The notes under the pieces are model-generated. The model was not told the DNA's origin. It made no database searches and saw only the letters and a program-made list of their open reading frames with translations. From the UHGV virus genome UHGV-0097368: DNA of 17,604 nucleotides; one strand, written 5' to 3'. Of this stretch, positions 4,702-9,980 are shown one piece after another. Each line of letters begins with the position of its first letter. Within the stretch, counting starts at the first letter, position 1. This DNA comes from a virus. The translations under genes were made by a program, and so were the position numbers.

Positions 4702-5228
4702 GCAGCCCTCCTGACACCCTGCCCGATCGCCATCAATGCCGCTTTGGATACGGTAGTAAACATCCGTCGAGGACTGATGAATGGTCGCCAAATCAGCAGC
4801 ATGGAGCCTTTGCTGTTTCCCTTCTTCTCCAGCCCCGTCGATGGTTCGATAAAATTAATCCGTCCATCAGTGATAATGCGAACTTCGTCAACACTCTCCA
4901 GAGCCTTGCTGAACCATCCGACAGACATATCCTCTGGCACAAGCATCACTACCGGCTGTCGCTGTTGTATGCACTGCTCAGCGGCTTTTTCCACCCACGG
5001 CCTGATATTGCTGTACGGTGGGTTATTCCAGATTGCACCGTGGCTTATCCACTCAGAATTTAGCGCGTCGTCAGCCTCAGTTAGCCAGTGAGCGCACAGA
5101 GCATTTTTGTCGCTCGCTGCCGAATCCAGCCAGAATCCAAACTCAATATCCAGTGCATCAAAAAGCCAAAGCGGCGTTTGCCAGCAGTCTCTAACTTCTT
5201 TTGGTGTTTCTGATTTATGCTTAATCAT
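4698..5228 (-). CDS. Phage Dam-family DNA N6-adenine methyltransferase (orphan)
   Basis: 176 aa with CWQTP...FDALD...F.LD.AA and a NPPY catalytic motif typical of the phage N6-adenine MTase family; ATGA overlaps on both sides. Confidence 0.8.
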   Translation of the reverse strand: MIKHKSETPKEVRDCWQTPLWLFDALDIEFGFWLDSAASDKNALCAHWLTEADDALNSEWISHGAIWNNPPYSNIRPWVEKAAEQCIQQRQPVVMLVPEDMSVGWFSKALESVDEVRIITDGRINFIEPSTGLEKKGNSKGSMLLIWRPFISPRRMFTTVSKAALMAIGQGVRRAA

Positions 5229-5752
5229 TCAACCCTCGCATATTGTCCGTGATATTTGTTGATAGCCTCACTGGCAACCAAACCAGCAAGCTCAAGATCT
5301 TCATAGAACCCAAAATGCAACCGGCCAAAATCTGTGCGCACTTGAACGGCCCATTTATTTTTTTGCTTGTTCCATAAAACATTTTTTATTCCAGAACGGC
5401 TATTGCACTTAGTTTTCTGATTTCGGCTGTTTGCTATCCGGCTTGCCTCCCTAAGATTTTTTGGGGAATTGTCCAGCCTGTTTCCGTTAATATGGTCAAT
5501 ATTTTTCAATGGCATTCTTTTGTTGTGCAGCGCAAAAACAACTACGTGAACAAACATCTGAATGCCTGCAAAACACACCTGTCTATACCCAGATCCATTT
5601 ATCGATGTTTTAATTTCATCTCCGGCCCGGTGGCTGTGGTTGGGGTGTTTTAGCGAGTCCTTTTTGTACCTGACTGTATCTCCGTCTAAATACAGATAAT
5701 CCTCAATAAGCCGATACCTATCTGACGCTGGCGTATTTGATTTGATAGTCAT
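5225..5752 (-). CDS. HNH homing endonuclease with C-terminal AP2-like DNA-binding domain
   Basis: 175 aa from MTIKSNTPASDRY...; HNH_3-type motif HVVVFALHNKRMPLKNIDHINGNRLDNSPKNLREASRIANSRN; C-terminal WNKQKNKWAVQVRTDFGRLHFGFYEDLELAG is AP2-like. Visibly more AT-rich than the flanks. Confidence 0.8.
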   Translation of the reverse strand: MTIKSNTPASDRYRLIEDYLYLDGDTVRYKKDSLKHPNHSHRAGDEIKTSINGSGYRQVCFAGIQMFVHVVVFALHNKRMPLKNIDHINGNRLDNSPKNLREASRIANSRNQKTKCNSRSGIKNVLWNKQKNKWAVQVRTDFGRLHFGFYEDLELAGLVASEAINKYHGQYARVE

Positions 5753-6189
5753 GCAGCCCGATCTCCCCATCTCGCTTTCCACTCCAGAGCCAGTCTCGCT
5801 TCGTCTGACCACTTAACGCCACGCTCTGTACCGAATGCCTGTATAAGCTCTAATAGATCCGCAAATTCGCTTACACGCATCCTGCTGGTTGACTGGCCTA
5901 TTACCACAAAGCCATTCCCGGCAAGGTTAGGAACAACATCCTGCTGCTTTAATGCTGCGGTAAACACACACTTCCAGCTTTCTGCATCCAGCCAGCGACC
6001 ATGCCATTCAACCTGACGAGAGACGTCACCAAGGCAAGCCCAAAGCTTTCGATTCTGGTCTAAGCTGCGGTTGCGTTCCTGAATGGTTACTACGATTGGT
6101 TTGGTTGGGTCTGGAAGGATTTGCTGTACTGCGTGAATAGCGTTTTGCTGATGTGCTGGAGATCGAATTTCAAAGGTTAGTTTTTTCAT
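5749..6189 (-). CDS. ninB: NinB (Orf-family recombination mediator)
   Basis: 146 aa from MKKLTFEIRSPAHQQNAIHAVQQILPDPTKPIVVTIQERN..., lambda NinB type. Confidence 0.9.
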   Translation of the reverse strand: MKKLTFEIRSPAHQQNAIHAVQQILPDPTKPIVVTIQERNRSLDQNRKLWACLGDVSRQVEWHGRWLDAESWKCVFTAALKQQDVVPNLAGNGFVVIGQSTSRMRVSEFADLLELIQAFGTERGVKWSDEARLALEWKARWGDRAA

Positions 6190-6204
6190 GACTTCCCTCT
6201 CCCC

Positions 6205-6237
6205 CAAATAAAAAGGCCTGCGATTACCAGCAGGCCT
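6205..6237 (-). terminator. Intrinsic terminator between the helicase gene and ninB (tR2-like position)
   Basis: Minus-strand RNA AGGCCUGC-UGGUAAUC-GCAGGCCU (perfect 8-bp stem) followed by UUUUUAUUU. Confidence 0.7.
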
Positions 6238-6266
6238 GTTACAAGCTCAGTGATGTAGATGGTCAT

Positions 6267-8147
6267 TTAATACTCCGTCACGTTTTCCTGTCGCCACGCC
6301 TCGTCATATTCCGATTTCGGCATATTGGCGATGTAGCTATAAGGCGATCCTGATTCAAGTTGCAGGAACTGGTGCGATTGCTCGTCAAGGAACAACGGGA
6401 CACCACCTTCCCAACCTTCGCCGTTACGTTGTTTTTCAAGCATCAAAACAGATGCCGGAGATGCCAGTAGCTGTTCGTCCTTCTCTGACATCTTTTCACC
6501 ACTCTGAACTCTCTGTAACGCTCTCTCGCGAGCCTTGTTACGCCAGATGATAAAAAGGTTGTCTGTCAGGTCTGTTATCGCTCCAGAGCCTTTTACGTCC
6601 ATTTTCCCGGTTGGTTTTTCTTCGCTATCTCCTTTTCTGGAGTGAGTAACGAGAATGACGTGGGAGTTTGTTTTGTTTTTGAAGTCACAAATCGAGTCAA
6701 CAAATGCTTTCTGCCCGTTATAGTCATCGTCACCTATGCCGCATTTCATCAGGCTGTCGATGATGAATAACTGGATGCCGTATCGGCGGCGAGCGTAGTC
6801 GAATATTTCGATCAGCCTGTCGGCTTTCGCCGTTCCAGTCAGGCCAAACACCCAAAGTCTTTCGTCATAAAATTTAAATGCAGAGTCAATTTCCAGCACT
6901 GGCGGCATCTTGCAGCACGTCGCCTGACGGGTAAGGCGCTTAAGGAGAATACCAGGCTTCAGCTCAAGTGACGCGATGCACGTCTTCACACCCTGACGCA
7001 TTGCCTCAAGTGCCATATGCCCGACAACCTCCGTTTTTCCGTGACCGTTCACACCATTGACCAGCGTCAACTCGGCCTCACGAAACTGGAATTTATCTGC
7101 CAGAGATTCCCACGGTGGATTAAACAGATACTGCTGCTTGCCGTAGAAAGCGTTGATAGTGTCCTGGTAAAACTCTCGCGCGCTGTAGAGTTCTTCAGGA
7201 TCAAAGTAGGATGCCGTGCCGATGTACTGCCAGATTTCATCCTCGGTAACACCGTTCATCAGGCATTCGTTGATGTCTTTGTACGGCAGAGTAACAAGAC
7301 GGCAACGATGTTCACCGAGTCGGCTTGCGATTTCCCCTGCGGCTTCACGACCAACATCATCAACGTCCATCGAGATGAATATTTCCTCAAACCTGTCGAG
7401 GTTGTGATACTCAAACTCAATCCACTGTTGCTTAGCGCCTTTCCCGCCACCAAACGGCACGGATAACGCCGAGATGCCGTATTGCGCATAGCTCATACAA
7501 TCAATTTCGCCTTCGCAAAGTACAACCGCCCTCACGCCAGCGTCCAGAGCCTGCCATCCGAACAGACAAGGTTCGCAATCACCTTCTGCCATAATGACTT
7601 TCTTCCCGTCCGGGCGCTCAGTGCTGATTCGCTTGACCTGCAACAACTCACCATCGCGTTTGTACGGAAGCACCAGTGCATCAAGTTCTCGTTCTCCATT
7701 CCACACCTTGCCGCTGACAACCTCGTAGCGCTTTACGACTTCTGGCGATATGCCACGCGATTGCAGGTACTCAAGATGGGATTCTGTTCTGGTAACGTAG
7801 CGGGCGATTTTCTTGCGATCAGGTCTGGAGAATTTTTTCTCACGTTTGGCATCGAAATGGTGATCGTCATCCTTGATACCGAGAAATGCTTTCGCTTCCT
7901 GCATAGCCTGATGCAGGTTAATTCCACGACATGCCATCCACAAATCAAGCATGTCACCGCCGTCTCCCTCAGCGAAATCAGCCCATTTTTTCTTGCCGCT
8001 AAGGTTGACCTTAAGGCTGTTTCCCTTGTCACCATTGACGTTACCGGCAACCCACTCATGCCCCTCTTTCTTGCCGTTTGGCAACAGGTGCGGAGCCACC
8101 CTGTCAACCTGCGCCCAAAGCAGGTCGCTAAGTTCACTTGGCGTCAT
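6267..8147 (-). CDS. Bifunctional DNA primase-helicase (Toprim primase plus DnaB/gp4-like RecA-fold helicase)
   Basis: 626 aa; Toprim-like VVLCEGEIDCMSYAQYG; Walker A GVNGHGKTEVV and Walker B LFIIDSL; N-terminal zinc-ribbon-like segment without the usual cysteines. Confidence 0.85.
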   Translation of the reverse strand: MTPSELSDLLWAQVDRVAPHLLPNGKKEGHEWVAGNVNGDKGNSLKVNLSGKKKWADFAEGDGGDMLDLWMACRGINLHQAMQEAKAFLGIKDDDHHFDAKREKKFSRPDRKKIARYVTRTESHLEYLQSRGISPEVVKRYEVVSGKVWNGERELDALVLPYKRDGELLQVKRISTERPDGKKVIMAEGDCEPCLFGWQALDAGVRAVVLCEGEIDCMSYAQYGISALSVPFGGGKGAKQQWIEFEYHNLDRFEEIFISMDVDDVGREAAGEIASRLGEHRCRLVTLPYKDINECLMNGVTEDEIWQYIGTASYFDPEELYSAREFYQDTINAFYGKQQYLFNPPWESLADKFQFREAELTLVNGVNGHGKTEVVGHMALEAMRQGVKTCIASLELKPGILLKRLTRQATCCKMPPVLEIDSAFKFYDERLWVFGLTGTAKADRLIEIFDYARRRYGIQLFIIDSLMKCGIGDDDYNGQKAFVDSICDFKNKTNSHVILVTHSRKGDSEEKPTGKMDVKGSGAITDLTDNLFIIWRNKARERALQRVQSGEKMSEKDEQLLASPASVLMLEKQRNGEGWEGGVPLFLDEQSHQFLQLESGSPYSYIANMPKSEYDEAWRQENVTEY

Positions 8148-8251
8148 GATTCCCTCAGATTGAGATTTTTAAACCAGAAATCGACAAACGAAATACTTAA
8201 CCAGCCGTGGTTATAACCAGCAACCAGTAGCGATTTGATTTTTGATTTCAT
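8144..8251 (-). CDS. Small coupled ORF (35 aa) between the initiator and primase-helicase genes
   Basis: Hand translation MKSKIKSLLVAGYNHGWLSISFVDFWFKNLNLRES; starts 4 nt after the O-like stop with AGGTG upstream; its TGA overlaps the helicase ATG (ATGA). No homolog recognised. Confidence 0.3.
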   Translation of the reverse strand: MKSKIKSLLVAGYNHGWLSISFVDFWFKNLNLRES

Positions 8252-8254
8252 GGT

Positions 8255-9115
8255 TCACCTGTCGAAAAACACGTAGCCAGTTTTCGATACGGTGATTGCG
8301 GATGATGGTTTGGATTGTGGTTGAATAGTTTCTGGCTTCTCGTCGTTCCAGCGTTGACCGTTCAGGTAGCTCGATGGTAACAACCTGTCGAATCCGAACT
8401 GCTTACCATTCCTGCATGCGATGTCTTCTGCCAGCATCGTGGCAAACTCGCTTGCCGTACCCCTGGTAGTTTTACGCCATTCCCTGAACTGTGTTCTGAA
8501 TGCCGAAGCTGCGTTTTTCTTCCCGGCTTTCCGCATGCCTGCACACCAGAATATTTCCTCGAATGCCTTGTCGGTTTCTTCGTGACGGTCATGTGATTTT
8601 TCACACTCCGTCCGAACACTTTCGGACATAGTGTTTTTATTATTTCTTTTTTCTTTTGTAATAGTTTCTTTTGTGTGTCCCTGTTTTGGTGACAGCGCTG
8701 TCACCGTTTTGGTGACACTTTTTGTCACCAATGCAGTGACATTATCACCAGAGTAGTGACACCCTTCTATTTGCCATTCCTCGATGTTCTTGTTAGGCCC
8801 GATTTGCTGGCCTTCGCGAAGGATAACCTTCATCGCGATAAGCTCATTCTTGGCCTTGTTTACCTTCTGTCTTGGCAGCCTGGTAATTTGAGCTAACTGA
8901 CTATCAGAGATGCGATCCATCTTTTTACCGTAGCCGTATGTTTTACGGCATATGGCGTGGGCAACCTTGCTCTGATTTTTCGTTAAATCTGCGCCGATAA
9001 GCTCTTCATACAGGGCATTTGCAAGACGGGTATAACCATCTTCAACTTCTGCCACACGACGCTCCACAGGCCGTTGTGAAGGCCTTAAATGTGTTACGGT
9101 TGCAAGATTACTCAT
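8255..9115 (-). CDS. Replication initiator, lambda O-like N-terminal iteron-binding domain with a different C-terminal domain
   Basis: 286 aa; N-terminal [56 protein letters not shown] resembles the lambda O N-domain; iterons lie inside the gene; AAGGAG upstream of the ATG. Confidence 0.8.
8630..8764 (-). repeat. Replication origin: four palindromic iterons (8688-8764) followed by an AT-rich tract (8630-8686) inside the O-like gene
   Basis: Plus strand reads GGTGACAGCGCTGTCACC, GGTGACACTTTTTGTCACC, GCAGTGACATTATCACC, GTAGTGACACCC at roughly 23-bp spacing, next to TTTTATTATTTCTTTTTTCTTTTGTAATAGTTTCTTTTG. Confidence 0.75.
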
Positions 9116-9254
9116 GACCTTTCTCCTTCTGCATCAGCTTCACTTTTTCCAACTCAGCCCGGAATCGACCAGGCTGCTTGAAGCTGGACAGGAAGCGATC
9201 ACGTAGTATGTGTTTGTGAATTTTGTCCTGGTAAGGACTGAGTTGTTTTGTCAT
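9108..9254 (-). CDS. Small basic ORF (48 aa) between cII and the initiator gene
   Basis: Hand translation [48 protein letters not shown]; GGGAG 5 nt upstream of the ATG; overlaps the O-like start by 8 nt. No homolog recognised. Confidence 0.35.
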
Positions 9255-9288: not shown

Positions 9289-9567
9289 TTAGGCCTCGAA
9301 GAATTCGCCGTTCTTCGGGGCTTTTTCTTTTGTCAGCATTCTGGCTACTTGCTTAGCCAGTTCCGCCAACTCCTCGTCTTCAACACCCCATTCCAGCACA
9401 GCCAGAAGCATGGCCATCTTTGGGATAAAGCTGTCTTTCCATCGCGAAATTTGCGATTCATTAATCCCTAACGCGTCGGCAACCTTTCGCTGACCACGTA
9501 CAGCAATTCGATTCAGGATGTTGCTTGTAATTGCATTCGCTTTCTTGCGAGTACTTGTAAGTTGCAT
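9289..9567 (-). CDS. cII: cII-like transcriptional activator (divergent from lambda cII)
   Basis: 92 aa from [61 protein letters not shown]; helix-turn-helix SQISRWK and the LLAVLEWG segment are shared with lambda cII; N- and C-termini differ. Confidence 0.85.
9294..9331 (+). terminator. Intrinsic terminator antisense to the 3' end of cII (oop-RNA-type terminator)
   Basis: Plus strand CCTCGAAGAA-TTCGCCG-TTCTTCGGGG followed by CTTTTTCTTTT. Position and orientation match the lambda oop terminator; the promoter could not be placed confidently. Confidence 0.6.
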
Positions 9568-9577
9568 ATGTAAGTAT
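9545..9577 (+). promoter_or_regulatory. Candidate PRE (cII-activated promoter): TTGC-N6-TTGT plus AAGTAT -10
   Basis: TTGCGAGTACTTGT at 9545-9558 and AAGTAT at 9572-9577 have the same spacing as the lambda TTGC-N6-TTGC / -10 arrangement; a perfect TTGCTTGTAATTGC also lies at 9521-9534. Confidence 0.5.
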
Positions 9578-9646
9578 TTCCTTAGATAACAATTGATTGA
9601 ATGTATGCAAATAAATGCATACACCATAGGTGTGGTTTAATTTGAT

Positions 9647-9678
9647 GCCCTTTTTCAGGGCTGGAATGTGTAAGAGCG
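9647..9678 (-). promoter_or_regulatory. nutR (boxA CGCTCTTAC, boxB GCCCTGAAAAAGGGC)
   Basis: Reverse complement of 9647-9678 gives CGCTCTTACACATTCCAGCCCTGAAAAAGGGC just downstream of cro. Confidence 0.85.
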
Positions 9679-9685
9679 GGGTTAT

Positions 9686-9895
<210 letters not shown>

Positions 9896-9910
9896 TTAGT
9901 ACATGCAACC

Positions 9911-9980
9911 ATTATCACCGCTAGAGGTAAAATAGTCAACACGCACGGTGTTAGATATTTATCCCTTGCGGTGATAGATT
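9911..9980. promoter_or_regulatory. Right operator OR1-OR2-OR3 with divergent promoters PR (minus) and PRM (plus)
   Basis: OR1 9913-9929 TATCACCGCTAGAGGTA, OR2 9937-9953 CAACACGCACGGTGTTA, OR3 9960-9976 TATCCCTTGCGGTGATA. PR -10 (rc GATAAT) 9911-9916 and -35 (rc TTGACT) 9934-9939; PRM -35 TAGATA 9952-9957 and -10 TAGATT 9975-9980. Confidence 0.9.

Follow-up and report, generated by a model that had tools for sequence, protein, structure and literature searches.

The 17,604-nt stretch of virus genome UHGV-0097368 that we analyzed (hereafter the window, taken at its whole length, with positions on the given strand) carries a lambdoid replication module made up of an O-like initiator, a 35-amino-acid (aa) protein and a 626-aa primase-helicase. 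We consider it probable that this is an ES18-type module, in which three translationally linked genes form a minus-strand operon read from pR and the initiator recruits its own primase-helicase. The sequence itself shows the order of the genes, their domains, the anatomy of the origin, the conservation of the catalytic residues and the co-inheritance of the parts. The module is not new and it is common: by sequence it belongs to the already catalogued ES18/Sf101/mEp043-type (‘Eru5’) class of lambdoid replication modules. An earlier note, made from the letters of the window, had proposed a non-lambda replication module here, and the two open reading frames (ORFs) that it named lie exactly at the limits it gave (Table 1). 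That note did not have the minus-strand orientation, the conserved 35-aa gene or the fact that the module has been annotated since 2005.

The initiator joins a lambda-like N-terminal half to a different C-terminal half. Residues 20–114 match the Pfam family Phage_rep_O (PF04492; E = 1.1e-37, 128.8 bits against a cut-off of 28.7), the protein also matches NCBIfam phage_O_Nterm (TIGR01610; 1.6e-30, 105.4 bits against a cut-off of 45.5), and BLASTP aligns aa 1–157 to lambda O at 49% identity. Judged by these matches, the N-terminal domain is a winged-helix domain of the lambda O family. Past residue 157 BLASTP finds no significant similarity to lambda O, and a tblastn search of the window with the lambda O C-terminal domain yields no homolog (best E = 0.98). 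The protein has the N-terminal domain and the in-gene origin of the lambda O family and lacks its P-interacting C-terminal domain. In its place is a domain matched by PHROG 33384 and 270, which by sequence comparison is not related to the P-binding domain of lambda O. A homolog search with this domain alone returned 47 proteins, mostly partial and near-identical, and Pfam at E ≤ 10 gives no match for it, for the 35-aa protein or for the N-terminal domain of the primase-helicase, which resembles a zinc-binding domain (ZBD). The earlier note had described the initiator in just this way, with a lambda-O-like N-terminal domain, a divergent C-terminal half and an iteron origin within its own gene, and had suggested domain annotation with hidden Markov models as a check; that annotation (Pfam, NCBIfam, PHROG) bears out both the O-like N-terminal domain and the primase/helicase.

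The origin lies within the initiator gene, where four iterons occupy codons ∼119–147. Their degenerate pattern, TGTCAC-N7-GKGAYA, matches the 17.6-kb window at 8676–8761 only; 0.02 matches are expected by chance, and the observed count was reached in 0 of 200 shuffles. Iterons, A-rich tract and palindrome are colinear with lambda ori: the four iterons stand in register with lambda iterons 1–4, and the flanking palindrome holds a position analogous to that of the lambda ori palindrome. We aligned the origins of lambda, PhiR12_1 and the window. The A-rich tract is near-identical in all three, and both of its flanks diverge. Lambda and the window barely differ at the end of iteron 4 and in the A-rich tract (CAAAACAGGG..ACACAAAAGA.ACTATTACAAAAGAAAAAAGAAA), but the iteron cores (TGTCAC..GGTGACA in the window versus TCCCTC..GAGGGA in lambda) and all DNA downstream are different. 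By these features the origin is of the lambda type with changed iteron specificity, and its binding by the initiator is predicted. The A-rich tract is likely the unwinding site and likely also where recombination has joined the two initiator halves. Megablast matches to Shiga toxin (Stx) phages stop at 8639, next to this tract.

The largest gene of the module encodes what the earlier note had called a fusion of a Toprim primase and a RecA-fold helicase in the place of P, and the matches agree. Pfam identifies Toprim_2 (E = 4.5e-12) and AAA_25 (2.1e-6; 27.9 bits, just above the 27-bit cut-off). Phmmer against the PDB aligns aa 192–539, which span Toprim and helicase, to T7 gp4 at 5e-23 and matches the protein to Twinkle at 2e-13, and PHROG 239 (‘DNA primase/helicase’) covers its full length at 1e-170. 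Foldseek with an AlphaFold2 (AF2) model built on 24 homologs gave as top structures T7 gp4 (5ikn, 2e-22), Twinkle (7t8c, 7e-21) and the ZBD plus RNA-polymerase domain of Aquifex DnaG (2au3, 7e-10); whole-chain template modeling (TM) scores are ∼0.3 because the domains are placed differently. The Toprim residues E212/E214/D216, D261/D263 and D291 align with E157/E159/D161, D207/D209 and D237 of T7 gp4, and K371, E395, D464 and H502 fall on its helicase motifs (Walker A/B, catalytic Glu, motif-3 His). Across 24 homologs, down to 69% identity, the six Toprim acidic residues, G365–K371, E395, D464 and H502 do not vary. The protein shares with T7 gp4 and Twinkle the domain order (ZBD-like, RNA-polymerase/Toprim, linker, RecA-type helicase), the Toprim catalytic acids, the RecA-fold helicase motifs and the fold, although identity is only ∼21–26% and the Cys4/CHC2 zinc ribbon is missing. 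Sequence and model together place it as a T7-gp4/Twinkle-type primase-helicase of helicase superfamily 4 (SF4), with predicted activities. No homolog of lambda P was found in the window by tblastn (best E = 0.11), the genes of the window include no DnaB-like gene, and the only ORFs from O to ninB are those for the 35-aa and 626-aa proteins. We also considered the group of P4 alpha and N15 RepA (superfamily 3, SF3) and rejected it: the best matches are to SF4 proteins (gp4, Twinkle, DnaB), none is to an SF3/P4-alpha family, and the initiator is a separate protein. The C-terminus of the primase-helicase (6267–6326, minus strand) is an acidic tail ending in Tyr (...SEYDEAWRQENVTEY), in which Y614 and V623 are invariant and W618 nearly so. 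Acidic, aromatic-ended tails dock polymerases in T7 gp4 and SSB, and by analogy this tail could contact host replisome proteins.

Between the two large genes lies the 35-aa gene, a homolog of ES18 gp60. Its ATG is 3 nt past the O stop, and its own stop overlaps the start of the primase-helicase gene (ATGA). Across the 79 window-type and 47 Fraca-type loci counted below its length is a constant 35 codons, within which many amino-acid variants surround a conserved core, LLVAGYN.G...FV..F..(F/L)(D/N)LRS. This layout is that of a translationally coupled third component of the module; our guess is that the protein is an accessory or stoichiometry factor for loading. In six related IMG/VR loci (L021, L026, L055, L059, L077, L086) a 491-bp insertion separates the 35-aa gene from the primase-helicase start and encodes a 164-aa free-standing HNH-type endonuclease with the motif ...HINGDKSDN..., and another locus (L058) has a ∼1.4-kb insertion within the primase part. 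The replication cassette appears to attract selfish elements as an insertion hotspot.

Natural recombinants show the parts of the initiator in several combinations. The O protein of PhiR12_1 carries the N-terminal domain and iterons of the window type (98.7% protein and 99.8% DNA identity) fused to the lambda C-terminal domain, followed by P and ren. Conversely, ES18 gp59 joins a lambda-type N-terminal domain to the C-terminal domain of the window (97% identity), followed by gp60 and gp61. A third N-terminal type (HTH_36) precedes a C-terminal domain and primase-helicase of this kind in Stx phages such as Min27, and a fourth does so in Fraca. In these alignments the initiator halves are separate exchange units, with the crossover in the conserved A-rich origin tract, and in natural recombinants the C-terminal domain always moves with the 35-aa gene and the primase-helicase. 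In lambdoid phages origin recognition belongs to the N-terminal half of the initiator and the choice of helicase partner to the C-terminal half, a rule that extends here to a primase-helicase partner. Linkage was counted in IMG/VR among 79 window-type loci with room downstream of the C-terminal domain and 47 Fraca-type loci. Both the 35-aa gene and the primase-helicase gene are present in all of them (79/79 and 47/47, or 126/126), and P is present in none (0/79 and 0/47), nor does it occur in any of 80 related loci. The Fraca type is 55% identical to the window in the C-terminal domain and 61% in the primase-helicase.

The surrounding DNA is lambda-like. The window holds a lambda-like early region in reverse orientation, with lambda cI, rexA and rexB on the plus strand and, on the minus strand, cro, an allele of cII, the replication genes, ninB, a gene for an HNH protein, dam, ninC and the remaining nin genes through Q and lysis. 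In local BLAST against lambda 38000–41000, lambda-level identity (97–99.7%) ends at 6266 and restarts at 9565; it is 97% over 5833–6266 and 99.7% over 9565–9927. In lambda terms the joints fall where ren ends and cII starts, so the entire cII-O-P-ren block has been exchanged. The swapped segment includes the 48-aa DUF2740 gene. Module-level mosaicism, which had been proposed for this replication segment between lambda-type immunity and nin genes, is thus supported by the positions of the joints. In lambda and in the window alike the replication genes lie between cII and ninB, driven by pR in lambda and presumably so in the window; lambda P and ren are absent from the window, and the 35-aa and primase-helicase genes stand in their place. 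The pR-like promoter falls within the 99.7% block and is the presumed driver of the cro-cII-O-primase-helicase operon.

The module has close and numerous relatives. Over its 2.85-kb segment, identity is 99.9% to Shigella phage Sf101, 99.5% to coliphage mEp043 and 91% to Salmonella phage SEN22, and the left 83–85% of the segment (primase-helicase, 35-aa gene and C-terminal domain) is 88–98% identical to ES18, epsilon34 and the Stx2 phages 24B, Min27, Stx2a_F403, F451 and Xuzhou21. The ES18 GenBank record of 2005 describes gp59 as ‘similar to phage lambda gpO’, a rep_origin as ‘similar to lambda ori’ and gp61 as ‘putative primase/helicase; similar to phage T7 gene 4’. ES18 gp59-gp60-gp61 has the same gene order, including the 35-aa gene, and gp61 is 94% identical to the primase-helicase of the window. 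The order O-like initiator, 35-aa gene, primase-helicase between cII and ninB recurs in 79 of 79 related loci, and kin of this type also include SEN22, epsilon34, g341c and the Eru5 Stx2 phages Stx2a_F403, Min27 and 24B. The primase-helicase module is one of three types of replication module in P22-like Salmonella typing phages (PMC10307801), and the ‘Eru5’ replication class takes Stx2a_F403 as its type phage (PMC8951638). We found the module in 298 of 5426 complete E. coli genomes (∼5%), and the 90%-identity cluster of the 626-aa protein holds >5600 sequences. Because it is also carried by the plaque-forming phages Sf101, mEp043, ES18 and epsilon34, we take the module to be functional.

The window differs from these kin in several respects. 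Its N-terminal domain and iteron specificity are neither those of ES18 (lambda-type) nor those of the Stx phages (HTH_36) and, unlike ES18-type kin, it combines the module with lambda cI-rexAB immunity. The exact mosaic consists of lambda cI-rexAB immunity, lambda nin/Q/lysis and an Sf101/mEp043-type replication cassette, and each block occurs separately at 97–100% identity. Further, an intein of 342 aa interrupts the Walker A loop of the primase-helicase in the Stx-phage alleles, whereas the window allele is intein-free, an ‘empty site’. The insertion is in frame within GHGK|T in Min27 (L007, 1827–4409) and in two further loci (L011, L033), at a site equivalent to window codon 371/372 (∼7032–7035). 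Its first residue is Ala (ACPLNE...), its last residues (...THN) precede Thr, and it matches Hint and LAGLIDADG. The insertion is an intein, of an unusual splicing class if judged by its Ala1 start. Frameshifts in the Min27 O gene and near the 3′ end of its primase-helicase gene are probably sequencing errors.

In the mechanism that we propose, transcription from pR would express the operon, and initiator dimers would bind the four iterons and distort or destabilize the A/T tract, as in the lambda O-some. The C-terminal domain would recruit the phage hexameric primase-helicase, not a P-DnaB complex, possibly with the involvement of the 35-aa protein. The SF4 ring would load itself on the exposed single strand and unwind 5′→3′, the Toprim domain would make primers, and the host Pol III holoenzyme, SSB and gyrase would finish synthesis. 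By sound inference from the homology to T7 gp4, host DnaB and DnaC would not be required; the earlier note had likewise expected replication that does not hijack host DnaB and DnaG as lambda does. Nor should DnaK, DnaJ and GrpE be, which in lambda free DnaB from P. Host DnaG is probably dispensable as well, a weaker prediction than that for DnaB. The primase-helicase presumably pairs with the origin-binding initiator and host Pol III, whereas T7 gp4 pairs with a phage polymerase. P4 alpha, a phage primase-helicase, lets replication run on host Pol III holoenzyme with no need for DnaA, DnaB, DnaC or DnaG, and together with P22 gp12 it is a precedent for phage helicases working with host Pol III. 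However, P4 alpha unites an SF3 helicase and its own origin-binding domain in one polypeptide, whereas the window has an SF4 helicase and places origin binding on a separate O-like protein. P22 offers a lambdoid parallel, in which P is replaced by a phage-encoded replicative helicase beside an O-family initiator with an internal origin (PMC10307801); the pair is gp18-gp12. Here the difference is that P22 gp12, a helicase of the DnaB type, has no primase domain, whereas the helicase of the window is fused to a Toprim primase.

Several points weigh against an initiator that brings its own active primase-helicase to the origin. All mechanistic steps after DNA binding are drawn by analogy with lambda O and T7 gp4, and the literature searched contains no experiment on this module type or on its dnaB/dnaG dependence. 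Nothing is known experimentally of the replication proteins of Eru-type phages (PMC8951638), and the Stx-phage work of the Wegrzyn laboratory concerns phages of the O-P type. The Pfam DnaB_C match of the 626-aa protein reaches 23.8 bits, under the 27-bit gathering cut-off, and its AF2 model is only moderate (mean predicted local distance difference test, pLDDT, 66). The other points concern the N-terminus of the primase-helicase and the partners of the initiator C-terminal domain.

The N-terminus has lost its zinc site. Residues 1–72 of the primase-helicase contain no Cys and residues 1–78 no invariant Cys or His; all four zinc ligands are gone, and the CxxC knuckle of DnaG aligns to D57-F-A-E60. 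The ZBD-like nature of the domain is suggested by a TIGR01391 (dnaG) match over aa 26–143, the 2au3 fold match and the family alignment; a phmmer search of the PDB with the primase N-terminus alone gave a marginal DnaG match (E = 1.3), which we use only jointly with these. The loss of zinc ligands is common to Vibrio and Pseudomonas temperate-phage relatives at 39–61% identity, and CxxC...CxxC ribbons are kept in more distant metagenomic relatives, also downstream of homologous initiator C-terminal domains. In T7 gp4 the ZBD is required for template-directed priming, and the 56-kDa form without it is active as a helicase and lacks template-directed primase (PMC2910064). Because the zinc ligands are missing here and the T7 ZBD is needed for priming, primase activity, and hence independence from DnaG, is uncertain. 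The 626-aa protein might instead be a replicative helicase with a crippled primase, like metazoan Twinkle, which has neither the cysteines nor primase activity (PMC3610141). Host DnaG would then prime, and the phage would have escaped DnaB/DnaC but not DnaG. This view accommodates a ligand loss that runs through the whole enterobacterial, Vibrio and Pseudomonas temperate-phage clade. However, metazoan Twinkle has lost the Toprim motifs too (PMC3610141), whereas the window protein keeps all Toprim catalytic residues, with the six acids invariant. In addition, the ZBD-like domain is strongly conserved (W32, G35, G39, S44-L45-K46, W55, D57-F58, G64-D65, L67-D68-L69-W70), which argues for a kept function, and gp4-type SF4 helicases have no known DnaG docking site. 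We regard a crippled primase as unlikely, while keeping it in view.

The same conservation invites a more speculative thought. In this temperate-phage clade the ZBD-like domain (aa 1–90) may have ceased to read templates as a zinc finger, or may do more than that; it might have been repurposed as a docking site for the initiator C-terminal domain, for the 35-aa protein or for both. We offer this tentatively and would sooner bet against it. If true, it would mean a loader-free, initiator-coupled placing of an SF4 primase-helicase on the O-some and priming without a zinc ribbon, a mechanism distinct from lambda O-P-DnaB and T7 gp4 alike.

The partners of the initiator C-terminal domain raise a second difficulty. 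The superfamily shares a motif of the type F..(I/F)W..(G/Y).(R/K)K...K..A...F...W(N/S)DE, and its distant set comprises 52 members with 25–40% identity and at least 2 kb of downstream sequence. A primase-helicase-like gene follows in 12 of the 52, a match to the helicase part only, with weak E-values, in 10, and neither in 30. Vibrio phages PVA1 and D65 likewise have the C-terminal domain and no primase-helicase, in all of PVA1 and in D65 minus its first 2.3 kb. The C-terminal domains of their initiators (L005/L092 and L006/L093) are 41–44% identical to that of the window, and the N-terminal domain of D65 shares 57% identity with its counterpart in Stx phage Min27. Neither phage has P or a recognizable helicase beside the O-like gene or elsewhere in the searched DNA, and they are examples of the ‘O-only’ lambdoid replication type. 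Their lack of a primase-helicase fits a report of O-only phages, in which 34 of 314 lambdoid phages had an O homolog only (Zheng et al. 2025, PMC12315714). Because of the distant members and of PVA1 and D65, the C-terminal domain is not intrinsically a primase-helicase binder, and we dropped the idea that it is a dedicated one in general. From these comparisons it is best seen as a generic adaptor whose partners differ by subfamily. For the module of the window we infer a specific contact between the C-terminal domain and the primase-helicase, but the linkage in close relatives could merely reflect a recombination hotspot in the A-rich tract.

These homologs without helicase, loader or primase-helicase, the O-only phages among them, would also suit a C-terminal domain that recruits a host factor such as DnaB-DnaC or a primosome protein, with the primase-helicase as an auxiliary or fork-restart enzyme that is not loaded at the origin; some annotators do name such proteins ‘primosomal protein I’. 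We find this improbable. It leaves unexplained the invariable linkage to the 35-aa gene and the primase-helicase in the window and Fraca types, the translational coupling of the genes and the reciprocal chimeras, which keep the C-terminal domain and its downstream partner together, and a full SF4 helicase with intact motifs would be costly as a mere accessory. That the segment is a decaying prophage remnant with dead replication genes is scarcely credible: the exact 17.6-kb mosaic was not found at ≥80% coverage among 50,697 phage records and 5,426 complete E. coli genomes, but the three ORFs are intact and share 99.5–100% identity with their counterparts in plaque-forming Sf101 and mEp043 and in several E. 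coli strains, and the catalytic residues and flanking lambda genes are intact as well.

As a sequence feature the cassette is ordinary, and its carriers include Stx2a phages of outbreak strains. Stx output depends on phage replication, so a phage equipped with a helicase of its own, and perhaps a primase as well, may not respond to host physiology in the way that lambda-type Stx phages do. The natural series of domain swaps is a ready genetic system for mapping contacts between initiator and helicase. The remaining interest lies in the conserved 35-aa third gene and in a ZBD-like domain that is zinc-less yet conserved.

Table 1. Features of the replication module and its flanks in the window.
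Feature	Position	Strand or location	Basis
Primase-helicase gene, 626 aa	6267–8147	−	ORF; Pfam, PDB and PHROG matches
SF4 RecA-type helicase domain, aa 355–594	6366–7085	−	Pfam; T7 gp4 alignment
Toprim domain, aa 209–296	7260–7523	−	Pfam
Zinc-less ZBD-like domain, aa 1–90	7878–8147	−	Family alignment; DnaG matches
Conserved 35-aa gene, ES18 gp60 homolog	8144–8251	−	ORF; PHROG 21848, 4e-26
O-like replication initiator gene, 286 aa	8255–9115	−	ORF
Initiator C-terminal partner domain, ∼aa 164–286	8255–8626	−	97% identity to ES18 gp59
Initiator N-terminal origin-binding domain, ∼aa 1–157	8645–9115	−	Similarity to lambda O
Imperfect palindrome, 14-nt arms, 4-nt spacer, adjoining the A-rich tract	8603–8634		Inverted repeat; lambda ori alignment
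A-rich origin tract, 36 bp, 81% A+T	8640–8675		Composition; follows the iterons
Four 19-bp iterons, imperfect inverted repeats of the TGTCAC-N7-GGTGACA type	8676–8694, 8699–8717, 8723–8741, 8743–8761		Repeat search
DUF2740 gene, 48 aa, 5′ of O, 8-nt overlap with the O start	9108–9254	−	Pfam DUF2740, 8.9e-29; RefSeq annotation in strain BL12
cII-type activator gene, non-lambda allele	9289–9627	−	Pfam Phage_CII, 6.7e-42
Right-hand mosaic joint to lambda DNA	9564/9565	in cII-type gene	99.7% lambda identity from 9565
pR-like promoter, TTGACT-17-GATAAT	9911–9939	−	Promoter scan; best sigma-70 match (10/12) upstream of cro-cII-O-primase-helicase
Intrinsic-terminator-like hairpin and T-run	6214–6237	−	Terminator scan; between the primase-helicase stop and ninB, in lambda-homologous DNA

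Three minor features flank the module. The terminator-like hairpin before ninB matches in position what we take to be lambda tR2. A second, strong terminator-like hairpin (14 pairs) with a T-run lies at 9291–9323 on the plus strand, opposite to cII and at its 3′ end. This is presumably the position of the terminator of the lambda antisense oop RNA, though cII and the DUF2740 gene are non-lambda alleles here; Rfam at gathering thresholds finds no RNA family in the window, this hairpin included. Finally, an HNH_3 endonuclease ORF (5225–5812, minus strand; Pfam 5.5e-11) lies between ninB and the dam-type methyltransferase gene and overlaps the listed end of ninB. Because ninB is directly followed by the methyltransferase gene in E. 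coli BL12 and in Min27, this ORF looks like an inserted homing endonuclease.

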